Sequence record: NC_072811.1
Source: Escherichia phage Halfdan
Strand: one strand, 5' to 3'
Length of the DNA stretch: 42,858 bases
Shown here one piece after another: positions 3,624 through 36,121 of the stretch. The position numbers were made by a program, and so were the translations under genes. Below the pieces are notes generated by a model. That model did no database searches, was not told where the DNA came from, and worked only from the letters and a program-made list of their open reading frames with translations. Position 1 is the first letter of the stretch, and every line of letters starts with the position of its first letter.

Positions 3624-4159
3624 TATGAACCCCAACGTACTTTTAATGTGGGCATCGAAGCGATGAACTTAAACCCTTTATCGTTCGGGTATTTCGCTTG
3701 CTGGTCTTCGTTAGTATACCGGGAATTAACCGAACGTGCCCAATTAATCAAGCGTGACGACGCGGAAGCCGCAACCGAAACAACTTGGCCTAAGTCAACG
3801 GTTAACGAATCAATTGTTCCGTTGAACCACGTAATCAAACCGGTTACAAGCTGGTTGTTTTTATCGACAAGCGCAATCGAAACCTTAATCGGTTTATTAC
3901 GCGTGTTTTCGTTAACAACGTCACCGGTCATAGTTGACGGAATATTAGTTAGGGTCAACTTTAACGCCGTAGCGGTTACACCGTTGGTCGTGGTGTAATC
4001 GCCGATTCGCCCAAGCGAACCGACGCCGTAATAAAGTTTTCCGCCGACAGTAATATTCCGGTCGGAAGTGTTCGCCAAGAACGGGCCACTTTCGAAACTG
4101 ATTTCTACAAAGTAAACCGGACGAACGACCTTTTCGTCGAACTGCGGGAAGTTACGCAT
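3623..4159 (-). CDS. tail protein, paralogue of the C-terminal domain of the 915-aa tail protein
   Basis: 178 aa; shares RPV(F/Y)FV and RYT(N/D)E.QQ...P.D(K/R)GFKFIA...K(V/L)(R/K)WG blocks with residues ~725-915 of ORF 4152..6899. Confidence 0.5.
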   Translation of the reverse strand: MRNFPQFDEKVVRPVYFVEISFESGPFLANTSDRNITVGGKLYYGVGSLGRIGDYTTTNGVTATALKLTLTNIPSTMTGDVVNENTRNKPIKVSIALVDKNNQLVTGLITWFNGTIDSLTVDLGQVVSVAASASSRLINWARSVNSRYTNEDQQAKYPNDKGFKFIASMPTLKVRWGS

Positions 4160-6899
4160 TTTGGTCGCCCCATTTTAGTTTGGTCGATTGCAAATCGGCG
4201 ATGAACTTAAATCCACGGTCGCCTGGGTGCAATAGTTGTTGGTATTCGTCGGTATAGCGGGCGGTTGAAGCCTTGTGCCAATCCGAAAGCGAAGACCGAA
4301 CGTTTAACTTAATCGTCGCGGTGTTACCGGTAAATTGAACGTTATTGTCGAGAATAGCGCCCGACCCGATAAGTCGCGGATTGCTGATTAGGATATTCGA
4401 AGGGTCAACCAAACCCAAGAACATTTTAACGCCCTTCGCCCGGATATGTTCGGTAACGTAATCGACCATATTAAGCGGAATGCCCGCAAGGCCCATTGAC
4501 CAACCAGCGTCGGAAGCGGCCAAGCCTTCCGTTACCGCTTCAATCTTGCCGAACTGGCCGGTCGCGAACCACGTTTTACCGTCATAGTCGATATTCTTGT
4601 CGGAACTGTTCATAAACGAATCGTCGCCAACTTGAACAAAGAACACCGGCCGAATAATACGGTCTTCAATTTCCGCGCCAAGTTGTCGGCGTGGCGGCAC
4701 GTATGGTTGAATCGCCGGGTCGGTTCCGTACAACGTATCGTCGTATGTAATACCGTCGCGGATAACTTGCGGGTATGCCCACACATAGATATTAGGGATT
4801 TCGTTCAAAATGGCTTCACGCGTCGCGATATTCACGTTAGGCCAAACCCAAGTTTCGCGGGCCGTGTTCACGAAGCCGACGAAGTAATGCACGACGGCCA
4901 ACGGATATTGCAAACGCACCGTCGCCGCTTCAAGGGTCAACGGCAACAAGTCAAGGTCGCCGTTAATAATCCAATCGTAATCCTCAATCTGTACGAAATC
5001 GTAATTCGGATAAATCCATTCCGATTCGGGGAAATTGATAATCGGCAACATTTCCGAAGCCGGGTTCATAATCTGCGGTGTAAAGAACAGCAGCGTACCC
5101 AACGAATCAGGATAAGCGGCCTTTACCGCATCCCGAATATAGTTGGTCGATTGGCCCAACTTCACGCCCAACCATTCCAAGTACGGGCGTTGGTCGTCGG
5201 TAATCGGCTGTTTATAGTTGGTGTAATACGGCGTCGGTACAGCGTGCCCGGTTTCGGTCGTATAAAGCCCCTTCGTGTATTCGTCGTAAATACACGGCGC
5301 ACCGTTCGTATAAGAACCGTCCCACCACCACGGTTCGCCAATCTGGAACATTAGCGTACTAATGCCGGATTCTTGAAGAAGTTTCATACCGTGTTTAATC
5401 GTCCGGGCTAGGTAATCCATCGCCGGAATAAACGTCGGAATCAGGAACGACGAAGGCGGCGACCAGCCCGAAAGCGCCGGGCTTCCGTAAGCGTCGCGTT
5501 GCTTCCATTCGTCCGGGCAATACGTGTTAAGGATTTCGTAAGACGTAGACCAAATAAACGTATAGCCGTAGGCTTGCATTTGGGTGAAGAAGTTACGGCA
5601 CCAAACTTCCGTAGGATAGTTCAGCGGTTCGGCCGCATCCTTTACCACTTGGTTAACGAATGTCGTACTTCCCCCGGTCGAATACGCCTTGAAATAGTGC
5701 GACATACCCATATACAGGTTGAAATGCCCCCGGTATCCAAGGTTGTACGTGTTATCAACTTGTCGCCACGGCGTAATATTGTATGTATCGTCGAAACCCG
5801 AAGTCATTTGCATATTATGCACGGCTTGCGGATAGAAACGACGACCGATAATGCGTCGCGCACCAGTTACCGAAATGTTCATCATTTCGAAGTTAAGCGA
5901 TTCGTTACCGATAGCCGTGTCGAGTTGAAGCGTAACGGCGTTCGCCGGGCCGCCGATAATCGCAACGTCTTTAAGCGGCCCGTTTTCGGCTTTTACATAT
6001 AGCGAAGTTCCCCGCATGTACCAGTTATTAACCTGAATCAAGAACGTTTGCAGGTTTTGAGTATAGATAGCGATAGGGTCGCCGCCGCCTTTACCGCCGT
6101 TCTTCTTACCGGTATTGACCGTTTTAACGTACTTGTCCGGTTGGACAATCGTAAATTGCAGAATGTCACCCTTCTTTAACCGCAAGTTAGGGTTAACGTT
6201 CATTACTTCCCAATAATCAAGCGTACCCGTACCCTTTACGCCGACGTATCGGGAACCGTAGTAACCAATTTCACCAATGCTTCGGATACGCGCATTCGGC
6301 CCAAGGCCATACGACCCCGGAGTAATGGCGAAGAAGAAGTTAATAATATAACGCGGGTCGATAACGTCGCCGTCGAAGTTGAACCCGGTTTTCATGTTGT
6401 CGAAATCAAGAATATAGATTTCGTAACCATCGGGAACGGTCGGCGTACCTTCGGGGAAGATATCAGAAATCGCGTAAATCAGGCCCGGCCCCGGCCCGGT
6501 AATTTCGATCGCACCGGGATTCGGAACCAGCGACTCGCCTTGTATCTTATACGGAAACATTCGGTAAACCTGATTACCGGAGTTCGACAGAACAGTTACC
6601 GTAAATTTGTACGGATAAAGCGGGTTCGCAACGAACCCAACTTTAACGCCGGAATAATCGCGGTCTTCGACGTACTGCAACAGGGGGTGCCCCATATCGT
6701 CGTGCGAAGTCCAAAGCAAGCCGACCAAATCGCGGTTAGAACGAAACTCACAATTTACGGTCAGCTTGTCGGGCGTATCGGCGATAATGGTTGCAATCGC
6801 CGACAACGGAAAGTCAAGGTGAAAATACCGGCCGTCGAAACGCGTAAGCGTCGAATTGGCGGCCGGTAGGGTTTCGCAGTATGCGCTATCGAATGCCAT
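4152..6899 (-). CDS. large tail protein (baseplate-hub-like, tail-tip complex)
   Basis: 915 aa; ATG 6897-6899 abuts stop of upstream gene; downstream of tape measure and distal tail genes; function inferred from synteny. Confidence 0.5.
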   Translation of the reverse strand: MAFDSAYCETLPAANSTLTRFDGRYFHLDFPLSAIATIIADTPDKLTVNCEFRSNRDLVGLLWTSHDDMGHPLLQYVEDRDYSGVKVGFVANPLYPYKFTVTVLSNSGNQVYRMFPYKIQGESLVPNPGAIEITGPGPGLIYAISDIFPEGTPTVPDGYEIYILDFDNMKTGFNFDGDVIDPRYIINFFFAITPGSYGLGPNARIRSIGEIGYYGSRYVGVKGTGTLDYWEVMNVNPNLRLKKGDILQFTIVQPDKYVKTVNTGKKNGGKGGGDPIAIYTQNLQTFLIQVNNWYMRGTSLYVKAENGPLKDVAIIGGPANAVTLQLDTAIGNESLNFEMMNISVTGARRIIGRRFYPQAVHNMQMTSGFDDTYNITPWRQVDNTYNLGYRGHFNLYMGMSHYFKAYSTGGSTTFVNQVVKDAAEPLNYPTEVWCRNFFTQMQAYGYTFIWSTSYEILNTYCPDEWKQRDAYGSPALSGWSPPSSFLIPTFIPAMDYLARTIKHGMKLLQESGISTLMFQIGEPWWWDGSYTNGAPCIYDEYTKGLYTTETGHAVPTPYYTNYKQPITDDQRPYLEWLGVKLGQSTNYIRDAVKAAYPDSLGTLLFFTPQIMNPASEMLPIINFPESEWIYPNYDFVQIEDYDWIINGDLDLLPLTLEAATVRLQYPLAVVHYFVGFVNTARETWVWPNVNIATREAILNEIPNIYVWAYPQVIRDGITYDDTLYGTDPAIQPYVPPRRQLGAEIEDRIIRPVFFVQVGDDSFMNSSDKNIDYDGKTWFATGQFGKIEAVTEGLAASDAGWSMGLAGIPLNMVDYVTEHIRAKGVKMFLGLVDPSNILISNPRLIGSGAILDNNVQFTGNTATIKLNVRSSLSDWHKASTARYTDEYQQLLHPGDRGFKFIADLQSTKLKWGDQNA

Positions 6900-33994: not shown

Positions 33995-34462
33995 ATGACC
34001 GACAACAACGCGCAAGCATGGGGCCAGCCGACCGAAGCCACCAAAACCAACGACCAGCTTATCGGCGAATGGGAAGCGGCGGCGAAACAACTGGCGCACT
34101 TCAAAGCGATTGAAGCGGCGGCCCGTAAGGCGATGGTTGACCGCATGTTCCCGAACAACGCCGGTCTTTCCGGCACCAAAAACGCCGACTTGGCTAACGG
34201 TTACAAGCTGAAAGCCGTGTTCAAGCTGAATTACAGCTTGAACAACAAAGACGATGCCGTCGATAAGGCGCTGTCGAAAATCGAAAAGGCTGGCCCCGAA
34301 GGTCAGTTCATCGCGAACCGTCTGGTCAAATGGAAGCCGGAACTTTCGGTTTCCGAATACAACGAACTTGAACCGAAGTTCAAGAAAATTATTGACGAAG
34401 TGTTGAAGATTTCGGACGGTACGCCGTCGGTTGAAATCGTCGCACCGAAAGAAAAACGTTAA
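33995..34462 (+). CDS. hypothetical early protein
   Basis: 155-aa ORF; AAAGGG SD; precedes Sak4-like gene. Confidence 0.45.
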   Translation: MTDNNAQAWGQPTEATKTNDQLIGEWEAAAKQLAHFKAIEAAARKAMVDRMFPNNAGLSGTKNADLANGYKLKAVFKLNYSLNNKDDAVDKALSKIEKAGPEGQFIANRLVKWKPELSVSEYNELEPKFKKIIDEVLKISDGTPSVEIVAPKEKR

Positions 34463-34514
34463 TCAACGACGCCCGGTTGCCCACATTAGGCCGCCGGGCT
34501 TTTCAGGTGAAACT

Positions 34515-35195
34515 ATGCAAACACGCGACTTACGACCGGCCGGGGATTTCGCCCGGCAATACGGCGTCAAGATGTTGGCCTATGGGCCGCCCGGTTCGGG
34601 TAAGACGCCGCTTATCAACACCGCACCGCGCCCGGTATTGCTGATTACCGAACCGGGTATGTTGTCGATGCGCGGTTCGACGGTTCCCGCATGGGAAGCG
34701 CCAACGGTTGAACGAATCGACGAATTCTTCGATTGGCTGTTTCGGTCGAATGAATCCAAAGGTTTCGATACCGTCGGCGTCGATTCAGTGTCGCAACTGG
34801 CCGAAATCGTGGTGAAAGCCGAATTGAAACGCAACCGCGACGGTCGGAAGGCTTACGGCGAAATGGCCCGAAAGGTACTAGACCACCTTACCGGCCTGTA
34901 CTACATGCAACAGAAACACACGTATCTAATCGCAAAACAAGCGATGGCGGAAGAAGAAGGTACGCAAGTTAAGAAACCGTATTTCCCCGGTCAAGAATTG
35001 GGGATTCAGGTTCCGCACTTGTACGACCTAATCGGGCATGTTGCAAAGACGACGGTTCCCGGTGTACAATCGCAAGTGTTGGCGATTCGCACCGCACCAA
35101 CCTTCGGAATCAACGCACCACGCGACCGAAGCGGTCGGCTTAACGAACTGGAACAACCAGATTTAACGGCACTGTTCAAAAAGGCAATGTCGTAA
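34515..35195 (+). CDS. Sak4-like RecA-fold ATPase (recombination / single-strand annealing)
   Basis: 226 aa from ATG 34515 (track ORF starts upstream at a non-ATG codon); Walker A AYGPPGSGKT and Walker-B-like VGVDSVSQL. Confidence 0.7.
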   Translation: MQTRDLRPAGDFARQYGVKMLAYGPPGSGKTPLINTAPRPVLLITEPGMLSMRGSTVPAWEAPTVERIDEFFDWLFRSNESKGFDTVGVDSVSQLAEIVVKAELKRNRDGRKAYGEMARKVLDHLTGLYYMQQKHTYLIAKQAMAEEEGTQVKKPYFPGQELGIQVPHLYDLIGHVAKTTVPGVQSQVLAIRTAPTFGINAPRDRSGRLNELEQPDLTALFKKAMS

Positions 35196-35251
35196 ATAAC
35201 CGAATTCGACACGGTTTGATTGTCGGAACTTTTCGAAAAGGTAGAAACAAA

Positions 35252-36061
35252 ATGGCTCAATTGATGCAAGCGTTCGACGCACGTAACGTAGACCCGACCC
35301 AAGGCGTCGGCGGTTTGCCAATCGGCAAGCATCCGGTTATCGCTATCAAGTCGGAAGTAAAGCCGACCAAGGATAACGATTCCGGTTATCTGCAATTCGA
35401 CTTGCAGGTTATCGACGGCCCGAACAAAGGTGCGGTCGGCGCTTACCGCCTGAACCTGTACCATACCAACCCGCAAACCGTCGAAATCGCGCACAAACAG
35501 TTGTCGGCTTTGTGCCACGTTACCGGCGTGTTCCAAGTGCAAGATTCGCAACAGTTGCACAACATCCCGTTTATGGTCGAAGTCGGGTTGCAGAAAGAAC
35601 CGAACCCGAACAAGTACACCGACGTAAAACGCGTGTTCGATATCAACGGTAACGAACCCGGCCACGCCAACGGCAACGGTCAAGCCGCGCAGAACAACGG
35701 CGGCCAAGCCGGTAACAACGGCGGTTCGTGGGGCAACCAGCAACAGAACGGCGGCCAGAACCAGCAGCAAAACAACGGCGGCAATAACGCCGGTTGGGGC
35801 GGTCAATCGCAAGTCGCGAACAACGTTCCGATGCCGGATAACAACGGCGGTAACAACCAGAACCAAGGCCAGAACAACGGCGGCGGTAATCCGGGTTGGG
35901 GCCAGAACAACGGCAACAACGGCCAGCAGGGCAACCAGCAGGGCGGCGGCTGGCAAGGCAACCAGCAGGGCAACCAAGGCCAGCAGCAAGGCAACGGCGG
36001 CGGCTGGAACCAGAACCAAGGCAACGGCGGCGGCCAACCGGCTTGGGGCCAACCGCGCTAA
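35252..36061 (+). CDS. putative ssDNA-binding partner of Sak4 with G/N/Q/W-rich C-terminal tail
   Basis: 269 aa from ATG 35252; globular N-terminal ~140 aa then ~130-aa low-complexity tail with periodic GW; functional call by context. Confidence 0.4.
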   Translation: MAQLMQAFDARNVDPTQGVGGLPIGKHPVIAIKSEVKPTKDNDSGYLQFDLQVIDGPNKGAVGAYRLNLYHTNPQTVEIAHKQLSALCHVTGVFQVQDSQQLHNIPFMVEVGLQKEPNPNKYTDVKRVFDINGNEPGHANGNGQAAQNNGGQAGNNGGSWGNQQQNGGQNQQQNNGGNNAGWGGQSQVANNVPMPDNNGGNNQNQGQNNGGGNPGWGQNNGNNGQQGNQQGGGWQGNQQGNQGQQQGNGGGWNQNQGNGGGQPAWGQPR

Positions 36062-36076
36062 GTCGCAATCAACGGT

Positions 36077-36104
36077 AAGGGGCTTCGGCCCCTTATCGTC
36101 TTTA
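36077..36104 (+). terminator. candidate terminator after gene 35252..36061
   Basis: stem AAGGGGC/GCCCCTT with TTCG tetraloop, then ATCGTCTTT. Confidence 0.45.
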
Positions 36105-36121
36105 CAGGGGAATAATGCCGT

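Follow-up and report, generated by a model that had tools for sequence, protein, structure and literature searches.

A non-acidic C-terminal tail with evenly spaced tryptophans in the DUF669 single-stranded DNA-binding protein of Escherichia phage Halfdan

The SSB gene and its product

The sequence record NC_072811.1 of Escherichia phage Halfdan (42,858 nucleotides) represents the complete genome of a Halfdan-type siphovirus of the genus Lokivirus. The open reading frame (ORF) located at positions 35252..36061 codes for the phage's own SSB (single-stranded DNA-binding protein) of replication and recombination. This protein is composed of an N-terminal OB-fold domain and a long C-terminal tail, in which six Trp residues are distributed along a spacer of Gly, Asn and Gln, and which ends in a Trp-containing tip instead of an acidic one. 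The features of the gene are as follows.

35252..36061, + strand: gene of the SSB, with 269 codons before the stop; assigned to DUF669 and to PHROG 6015 ("single strand DNA binding protein")
35252..35662, + strand: N-terminal OB-fold domain (Pfam DUF669), residues 1-137, with the conserved GNEPG anchor at its end
35663..36058, + strand: predicted disordered C-terminal tail, residues 138-269 (132 amino acids), directly after the GNEPG anchor
35729..35731, + strand: codon of Trp160 (SWG); in many relatives Phe is found here (GGFG or GNFGG)
35795..35797, + strand: codon of Trp182 (NNAGWGG); the surrounding block is identical in Pseudomonas phage Pavpe01
35810..35836, + strand: mid-tail hydrophobic island QVANNVPMP, residues 187-195, conserved in several relatives
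35897..35899, + strand: codon of the tail residue Trp216 (NPGWGQ)
35951..35953, + strand: codon of the tail residue Trp234 (GGGWQG)
36005..36007, + strand: codon of Trp252 (GGGWNQ), last module but one, with the tip Trp 13 residues further on
36038..36058, + strand: C-terminal tip PAWGQPR, residues 263-269, with the codon of Trp265 at 36044-36046; the consensus among relatives is (P/A)(P/A/S)W(G/A)(Q/K)(R/K)-COOH

The Pfam profile DUF669 (PF05037) matched residues 8-127 of the protein with a score of 49.6 bits (gathering cut-off 21; E 5.7e-13), while PHROG 6015 covered the whole SSB including the tail (residues 2-268 aligned with positions 1-272 of a profile of length 273, E 2.8e-76). A first-pass annotation, made from the sequence alone, had named the product a Sak4-partner protein; its identity as the Sak4-adjacent SSB is supported by both profiles and by the position of the gene next to that of a Sak4-like annealase. 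Binding of single-stranded DNA (ssDNA) by the Halfdan protein is to be expected from the PHROG 6015 annotation and from the published biochemistry of the SSBs of phages HK620 and N4. The protein is 100% identical in phages Halfdan_Juelich and Shy. In GenBank relatives its start is annotated at the second ATG, 35264 (MQAFDA...); since homologues across the family begin with MAQL(M/L)QxFDA, comparison of the sequences favours a start at 35252.

The AlphaFold2 model, calculated from a 121-sequence alignment, displayed a confident OB fold over residues ~20-135, with a predicted local distance difference test score (pLDDT) above 95. The strands of the model extend over residues 25-38, 45-53, 62-70, 107-113 and 123-129, and a helix over residues 74-91, so that three strands are followed by a helix and two further strands, which is the arrangement of an OB barrel of five strands, with strands 3 and 4 separated by the helix. 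A search with the full protein sequence against solved structures (PDB) yielded nothing at E<=10. The best Foldseek match of the N-domain model was PrgE of the plasmid pCF10 (8S4S, E 4e-6), followed by OB domains of bacterial and mitochondrial SSBs (E ~1e-2). PrgE (PDB 8S4S/8S4T) resembles the Halfdan domain in being an atypical OB-fold ssDNA binder, but shares only 12-14% sequence identity with it, belongs to the context of a conjugative plasmid and has no comparable tail.

Composition of the tail and the underlying DNA

The tail contains 41 Gly, 34 Asn and 31 Gln residues (80% of the total), together with seven Ala, six Trp, five Pro, one Asp and one Arg. The sole Asp is not near the C-terminus, and the Arg is the last residue of the protein, which ends QPAWGQPR. 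The Trp residues occupy positions 160, 182, 216, 234, 252 and 265, leaving gaps of 22, 34, 18, 18 and 13. A tail of about 130 residues, rich in Gly, Asn and Gln and with Trp in exactly these contexts, had been described in the first-pass annotation, and its claim that the intervals are regular holds modestly in Halfdan alone: in 100,000 random placements, the coefficient of variation of the gaps gave P=0.031 and the minimum gap P=0.024. The tail was predicted to be disordered, with pLDDT below 50 for residues 162-253. In the last nine residues the score is somewhat higher, 59, compared with ~40 in the rest of the tail. Up to 44 Gln and Asn residues fall within 80 consecutive positions (best stretch from residue 169), which is above the prion-like threshold of at least 30 in 80.

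Between Trp182 and Trp216 lies the hydrophobic island QVANNVPMP, which is kept in Pavpe01 and recognisable as GVANNVQMP in locus L004, VASNVQMP in proteins P0126 and P0138, TATNVQMP in P0157 and NTANNVPVP or NTASNVPPP in loci L056 and L062. Possibly the island represents an additional short linear motif that is confined to a sub-clade.

At the DNA level the tail is characterized by a pronounced codon bias towards GGC, AAC and CAG (Gly is encoded by GGC in 34 of 43 cases and Asn by AAC in 34 of 36) and by a GC content of 64%, compared with 53% in the N-domain. The DNA had been described as repetitive, and CAACGGCGGC does occur five times. Tandem Repeats Finder, however, reported only three short, weak arrays (periods of 9, 12 and 21; scores of 36-63); a true tandem array was therefore rejected, and the composition was put down to codon bias. 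The modules seen at the protein level, of ~19 residues, are degenerate. Three further ORFs which span the tail, 35006..36052 (- strand, 348 aa), 35643..36068 (- strand, 141 aa) and 35896..36078 (+ strand, 60 aa), are not regarded as genes, because their A/L/V- or R/P-rich translations are a by-product of the same codon bias.

Some homologues are deposited as "multimodular transpeptidase-transglycosylase" (Vibrio phages) and "dihydrolipoamide acyltransferase component" (Pseudomonas phage Quinobequin-P09). It is almost certain that the low-complexity tail led to the transfer of these names in annotation.

Conservation of the Trp tip and of Trp spacing

An exhaustive HMMER search with the N-domain alone retrieved 4,596 clusters at the level of 50% identity at E<=1e-3, a number which falls to 1,990 at E<=1e-10. 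Members of this family of N-domain relatives are held by ~360 of 50,697 deposited phage genomes. The tails were surveyed among the best 150 matches, 147 of which, with N-domains 44-69% identical, carry a tail of at least 30 residues. A Trp lies no more than six residues from the C-terminus in 144 of the 147, and the tip follows the consensus (P/A)(P/A/S)-W-(G/A)-(Q/K/A/R)-(R/K/P)-COOH, with Lys or Arg among the last four residues in 116 tails. Among the columns of the 121-sequence alignment, that of the tip Trp (W265) alone is invariant, which makes it better conserved than any column of the OB fold.

Trp makes up 4.0% of the residues in the tails, as opposed to 0.3% in the N-domains. Gaps between successive Trp have a median of 18 (5-95% range 11-35), and gaps shorter than 8 amount to 0.5%, whereas 28% were found in shuffled tails. 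Hence the regularity that is modest in Halfdan alone proves to be far beyond chance across the relatives. Longer tails have more aromatic residues (r=0.76); about one in every 19 positions is aromatic, and the variance of the count is 3.6-fold below the binomial expectation. The commonest gap between the last two Trp is 13, as in Halfdan. The preferred context of the internal Trp residues is G-(G/A)-W-(G/Q)-(Q/G), while that of the tip is P-P/A-W-G; because the two differ, the tip is considered a motif of its own and not merely the last sticker.

The first-pass annotation had likened the tail to prion-like or condensate-forming domains or to aromatic-anchored interaction motifs. According to the first of these ideas in its pure form, the tail would be nothing but a prion-like, condensate-forming low-complexity domain, through which the SSB phase-separates by means of G/N/Q and Trp, and which has no docking tip. 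The high Gln and Asn count, the even spacing of aromatics and the predicted disorder agree with this, as does the aromatic-dependent condensation driven by the linker of the E. coli SSB (PMC12143593). However, richness in Gln and Asn is not conserved among the relatives: 35 of the 147 tails are A/P-rich and six are charged, and the pooled composition is 23% Q, 18% A, 17% P, 16% G and 6.7% N, with D and E together at ~1%. The tip is retained in every spacer class (all 16 G/N-rich tails, all 35 A/P-rich ones, 88 of the 90 mixed ones and five of the six short K/E-rich ones), and a terminal PPW(x)K persists in the short K/E-rich tails even though they have just one or two Trp. In addition, neither the P-P-W signature of the tip nor its fixed distance to the C-terminus is predicted by pure stickers. 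The purely prion-like explanation is therefore rather unlikely; of the ideas put forward in the annotation, an aromatic-anchored and/or condensate function is favoured by the comparative data.

The Trp tip is also found well outside the surveyed set. Distant DUF669 proteins with 28-43% identity end in PPWQQ, APWQQG, APSWAQQ, EPAPWEE, TPPWAQPQQ, TPPWATA or NKPWVRG; they originate from Seuratvirus CAjan, Nonagvirus JenP2, Nipunavirus TIVP-H6 and Loughboroughvirus S144, as well as from phages of Moraxella, Vibrio, Rhizobium and Acinetobacter. The SSB of Pseudomonas phage TIVP-H6 (338 aa; locus L092, 1501..2517) has a Trp-periodic tail with a mid-tail insert of ~40 residues which is not of low complexity (RGGLDSVVAATYVKKVIGVETELIHFCYGSRAEGPEVIAV) and which is flanked on both sides by PWQQ modules.

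Comparison with other SSBs and aromatic-rich proteins

In the same Pfam family acidic tips are found as well. The DUF669 homologues of Firmicute phages end, in 33 cases out of 34, in LPF after acidic residues (...DDDLPF), and have short tails with no Trp pattern. ORF30 of Lactobacillus phage Lc-Nu (DUF669, E 3e-11; end ...DISDDLPF) is an example. Such proteins share with the Halfdan SSB the Pfam family and the position directly after Sak4, but their tail of ~40 residues carries the canonical Gram-positive SSB tip ...DISDD(D)LPF and lacks the Halfdan Trp pattern. The family therefore has two tip types, an acidic one in the Firmicute-phage branch and a non-acidic Trp one in the proteobacterial-phage branch; a tip is present in both, and the proteobacterial-phage clade has replaced the acidic one. 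What these tips share is a Pro-aromatic core (IPF, LPF, PPF, PPW). Published surveys describe DUF669 phage SSBs as having acidic tails, and no description of a Trp-type SSB tail was found in the literature searched, coverage of which was incomplete.

A similar architecture is found in the SSB of E. coli, the linker of which is G/Q/P-rich, contains GGWGQP and has two aromatics, W136 and F148; changes of its aromatic or positive residues alter condensation, but not the binding of DNA or partners (PMC12143593). Both proteins combine an OB fold with a disordered G/Q/P/N-rich linker, sparse spaced aromatics and a C-terminal peptide with a Pro-aromatic core, and the motif repeated in the Halfdan tail is present once, as GGWGQP, in the E. 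coli linker. Thus the claim that the composition of the tail is unusual for an SSB holds only in part: richness in Gly, Gln and Asn is ordinary, whereas the replacement of the acidic tip by a Trp tip, together with six regularly spaced Trp, is not. The E. coli tip, DFDDDIPF, is acidic with a terminal Phe, and that of bacterial SSBs in general reads D-D-D-(I/L)-P-F-COOH; the Halfdan tip is non-acidic and has no Phe-COOH, and Halfdan-type proteins are anchored by a Trp that lies 2-5 residues before the C-terminus and precedes G-Q-(P)-R/K. Furthermore, the Halfdan SSB has six Trp against two aromatics, and its OB domain is of the DUF669 and not of the bacterial SSB type.

A functional precedent comes from phage HK620, whose Sak4-partner protein HkaK was demonstrated to be a true SSB (Hutinet et al. 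2018, PMC5928155). The C-terminal hexapeptide of HkaK, NDYPPF, is required for the loading of Sak4 onto SSB-coated ssDNA and for the stimulation of annealing and recombineering (PMC5928155); in HK620, recombineering drops about 10-fold when the tip is removed. The genes of HK620 and Halfdan both lie directly after that of Sak4, and both tips have a Pro-Pro-aromatic or related Pro-aromatic core. The HK620 tip, however, is an acidic, Phe-ending hexapeptide, which the Halfdan tip is not; its tail is short and shows no Trp periodicity, and HK620 lacks the Cas4 exonuclease/helicase module. A remote relationship has been reported in the literature (PMC5928155); in our comparisons no significant similarity to HK620 SSB was detected (BLASTP E of 0.29; hhalign probability of 0.45%), and no Pfam match was obtained for HK620 SSB.

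The SSB of phage N4 (gp45; locus L094, 8322..9119) is encoded directly after a Sak4-like gene as well, and has a basic, non-acidic G/A/S/K-rich tail (...GASAAKSLFGKK) ending in SLFGKK, an aromatic-Gly-x-basic sequence like that of PPWGKK and PWGQR in some members of the Halfdan-type family. The C-terminal residues of N4SSB are essential for the activation of E. coli sigma70-RNA polymerase through the beta-prime subunit, ssDNA binding being dispensable (PMC4496689). The Halfdan tip might be a transcription-activation motif of the N4 kind, which acts on the host enzyme at the beta-prime C-terminus and couples late expression to replication. No RNA polymerase is annotated in the Halfdan-type genome, so the host enzyme must be used, and an HHsearch link of 98% between DUF669 and N4SSB has been published (PMC4889955). 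On the other hand, this homology was not reproduced (hhalign probability of 5.5% over 24 columns; no Pfam match for N4SSB), the resemblance spans just 3-4 residues, and N4SSB, whose known partner is the host beta-prime subunit, has no periodic Trp tail. A role of this sort for the Halfdan tip is decidedly unlikely.

Uniformly spaced aromatic stickers in uncharged G/Q/N/S spacers are a property of low-complexity domains of the FUS and hnRNPA1 type. The Halfdan-type tail resembles these sticker-and-spacer domains in its evenly spaced aromatics and flexible uncharged spacers, but employs Trp in place of Tyr/Phe, and at a lower density of ~1 per 19-22 residues. Its local motif GGGW(G/N)Q recalls the octarepeat of PrP (PHGGGWGQ); there is no His and hence no copper site, and the resemblance is compositional only, with no homology implied. 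The GW/WG motifs of Argonaute hooks and the GW cell-wall modules of Listeria were also considered and rejected, since the conserved unit is P-W at the C-terminus of a DNA-metabolism protein and there is no Argonaute or cell-wall context.

Genomic context

The SSB gene is located in a module with the conserved order MazG, DUF7173, Sak4 (AAA_24), SSB, DUF3268 zinc-finger protein, Cas4-domain exonuclease and SF2 helicase. Three of its other members are listed below.

34515..35195, + strand: Sak4-like annealase gene (AAA_24), conserved upstream neighbour of the SSB gene and candidate partner
36555..37526, + strand: Cas4-domain exonuclease (PHROG 1990, E 9e-99; alignment starts at residue 31)
37527..39170, + strand: SF2 helicase, conserved downstream member of the module

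Synteny was assessed in 80 related IMG/VR loci, found with a 21-sequence alignment. Sak4 lies immediately upstream of the SSB gene in 78 of them and the Cas4 exonuclease is found downstream in 69; the Sak4-SSB-Cas4 exonuclease-helicase module is syntenic across the sample. A DNA polymerase, a processivity factor, a primase and a helicase of the phage's own are encoded in the Halfdan-type genome as well. Both acidic-tip examples, HK620 and Lc-Nu, are temperate and reliant on the host replisome, and the Trp-tip examples examined have replication genes of their own. Although the cases are few, this contrast fits the idea of a private interaction network.

The bases 34400-37600 are 99.3% identical to those of Escherichia phage Halfdan_Juelich_variant and 98.9% to those of phage Shy. 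A phage whose sequence is 99.3% identical to the Halfdan genome (PP954860.1, locus L001) was isolated from soil on Pseudomonas taiwanensis, which suggests either that the host range extends across genera or that there is a problem of labelling.

In the form listed here and annotated in relatives, the ORF of the Cas4 exonuclease shares 83 nt with the DUF3268 gene. Its Met30 is encoded by an ATG at 36642, 4 nt past the DUF3268 stop; given this ATG and a PHROG alignment which begins only at residue 31, the true start is probably 36642. The SSB stop codon is followed after 17 nt by a GC-rich hairpin, AGGGGC-TTCG-GCCCCTT and then ATCGTCTTTA (36078..36103), which is terminator-like with a weak T tract. 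Terminator-like sites in the region were not above chance (10 compared with 6.6 +/- 2.6).

A possible role of the tail and its variation

The best explanation of the Halfdan tail, and one we hold to be probable though by no means certain, is that the linker and tip of a bacterial SSB have been rebuilt with a Trp docking tip and Trp stickers. The tail would play the role of the disordered linker and C-terminal tip in another chemistry. The end PAWGQPR (in the family P-P/A-W-G-Q-R/K) may serve as a short docking peptide, the Trp of which would insert into a pocket of a partner protein. As partners, the components of the phage's own DNA machinery may be proposed, with Sak4 as the first candidate by precedent and the Cas4-type exonuclease, helicase, primase and polymerase as others. 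Being non-acidic, the tip would not be expected to engage the SSB-tip interactome of the host. The internal Trp (or Phe) residues, about one per 19, would act as evenly spaced stickers in a flexible uncharged spacer, rich in G/N/Q here and in Q/A/P elsewhere, and would provide weak multivalent contacts between SSB molecules or between SSB and partners, leading to cooperativity or condensation on ssDNA. The number of stickers would be free to drift.

Several observations weigh against this explanation. Firstly, the tail is highly variable in length: among Pseudomonas-phage relatives, 88% of the pairs whose N-domains share 97% identity or more have tails of unequal length, the largest difference being 53 residues, and tails of 47 and 99 residues occur on 100% identical N-domains, which means that the number of internal modules is only loosely constrained. 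The tip is nevertheless unchanged in all these length variants. The length variation foreseen in the first-pass annotation is therefore strong in the sister clade of Pseudomonas phages, while the three Halfdan-type isolates are identical in length, with 11 differing positions in the SSB gene, all of them synonymous, five located in the tail, and no indels. Secondly, the constant density of aromatics could in part result from the duplication of Trp-containing modules and not from selection.

Thirdly, frameshifted tails exist, a finding which the annotation had named, if no phenotype went with it, as a sign of neutral expansion. In Pseudomonas phage Pavpe01 (PP179316.1; N-domain 92% identical) a perfect 55-bp tandem duplication (locus L003, ~3765-3874) shifts the frame, and the deposited protein of 179 aa has an Arg-rich out-of-frame end. 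The old frame, however, is open and conserved through NNAGWGGGSQVANNVPMP to APAWGQPR-stop, and the duplication is either an assembly artefact or very recent slippage between GGCGGCAAC microhomologies. Likewise, in the IMG/VR locus L026 (IMGVR_UViG_2706795131_000001, ~6001-6800) the frame is shifted near the end of the tail, and the conserved end ...GGWQQQPQGGAPAGGAAPWGAR-stop is readable in another frame. Because the old frame is intact up to the ...WGQPR or ...WGAR end in both, these changes are either very recent mutations or sequence/assembly errors and, set against the conservation across the family, no sign of neutrality. Should the frameshifts be genuine and the phages fit, then the tail can be dispensed with under laboratory conditions.

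These variants bear directly on the alternative that the tail is a functionless, slippage-prone low-complexity expansion, in which Trp is simply carried along as modules duplicate. The extreme length polymorphism among near-identical N-domains, the duplication in Pavpe01 and the frameshift in L026, the (QN)n runs in Pavpe01 and locus L051 and the biased codon composition are all in its favour. A Trp, however, has a single codon and decays quickly in the absence of selection, and for this reason the terminal Trp, which is invariant across N-domains of 44-69% identity and all spacer compositions, speaks against neutrality. Close Trp pairs are avoided, only synonymous changes separate the isolates, and tails are present in essentially every complete sampled member of the proteobacterial-phage clade. 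In the light of this comparison the Halfdan-type tail does not appear to be a neutral repeat, an origin which is extremely unlikely.

Finally, docking to Sak4 was addressed by AlphaFold2 modelling of a fusion of Sak4, a (G4S)4 linker and the last 45 residues of the tail, with a paired 39-sequence alignment and pLDDT as the readout. Sak4 itself was confidently folded, but the tip reached a pLDDT of ~56, no better than the 59 of the SSB alone, a value which neither supports nor refutes docking on Sak4. The same models bear on whether the Trp residues might fold back on the ssDNA cleft of the OB fold as substitutes of stacked bases, thereby auto-inhibiting or tuning ssDNA binding or adding weak contacts. 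The C-terminal Phe of T7 gp2.5 sits in the DNA-binding cleft of that protein. The rise in pLDDT over the last nine residues of the monomer model is consistent with such an arrangement, and the tip of HK620 SSB has been proposed to be hidden until ssDNA binds (Hutinet et al., PMC5928155). Yet an equal rise was seen in the Sak4 fusion; since it persists there without the OB domain, it reflects local conservation of the motif and not docking. The tail also lacks the acidic residues that mimic the phosphate backbone in gp2.5 and E. coli SSB. Folding back on the cleft is consequently very unlikely.

A bolder extension of the docking explanation would treat the aromatic-Gly-x-Lys/Arg C-terminus (PWGQR, PPWGKK and LFGKK of N4) as a second, non-acidic "SSB tip code", orthogonal to the acidic tip of the host and shared by proteobacterial phages of at least ~2,000 sequence clusters. 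It would recruit private partners, possibly including the beta-prime subunit of RNA polymerase, while phage condensates built on Trp would exclude the clients of host SSB. We put it forward as a speculation which will rather improbably hold in full.

Implications for phage SSBs

That an SSB possesses a linker and a tip is known, and the gene studied here was already annotated as an SSB gene; what is new is the changed chemistry of the tip and the periodic aromatics. The low-complexity tails account for the recurrent misannotation of these genes. The natural series of tails, with 2-7 Trp, 30-156 residues and several spacer chemistries, lends itself to the study of sticker-and-spacer rules in bacterial and phage condensates, and recombineering tools built on pairs of Sak4 and SSB might employ the tip as an orthogonal peptide for recruitment. 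The acidic C-terminal tip has been treated as a near-universal handle by which SSB organises the proteins of replication, repair and recombination. A very large proteobacterial-phage branch of DUF669 has dropped it in favour of an invariant Trp tip on a Trp-periodic uncharged tail, and thus offers a natural experiment on the rewiring of SSB hubs.

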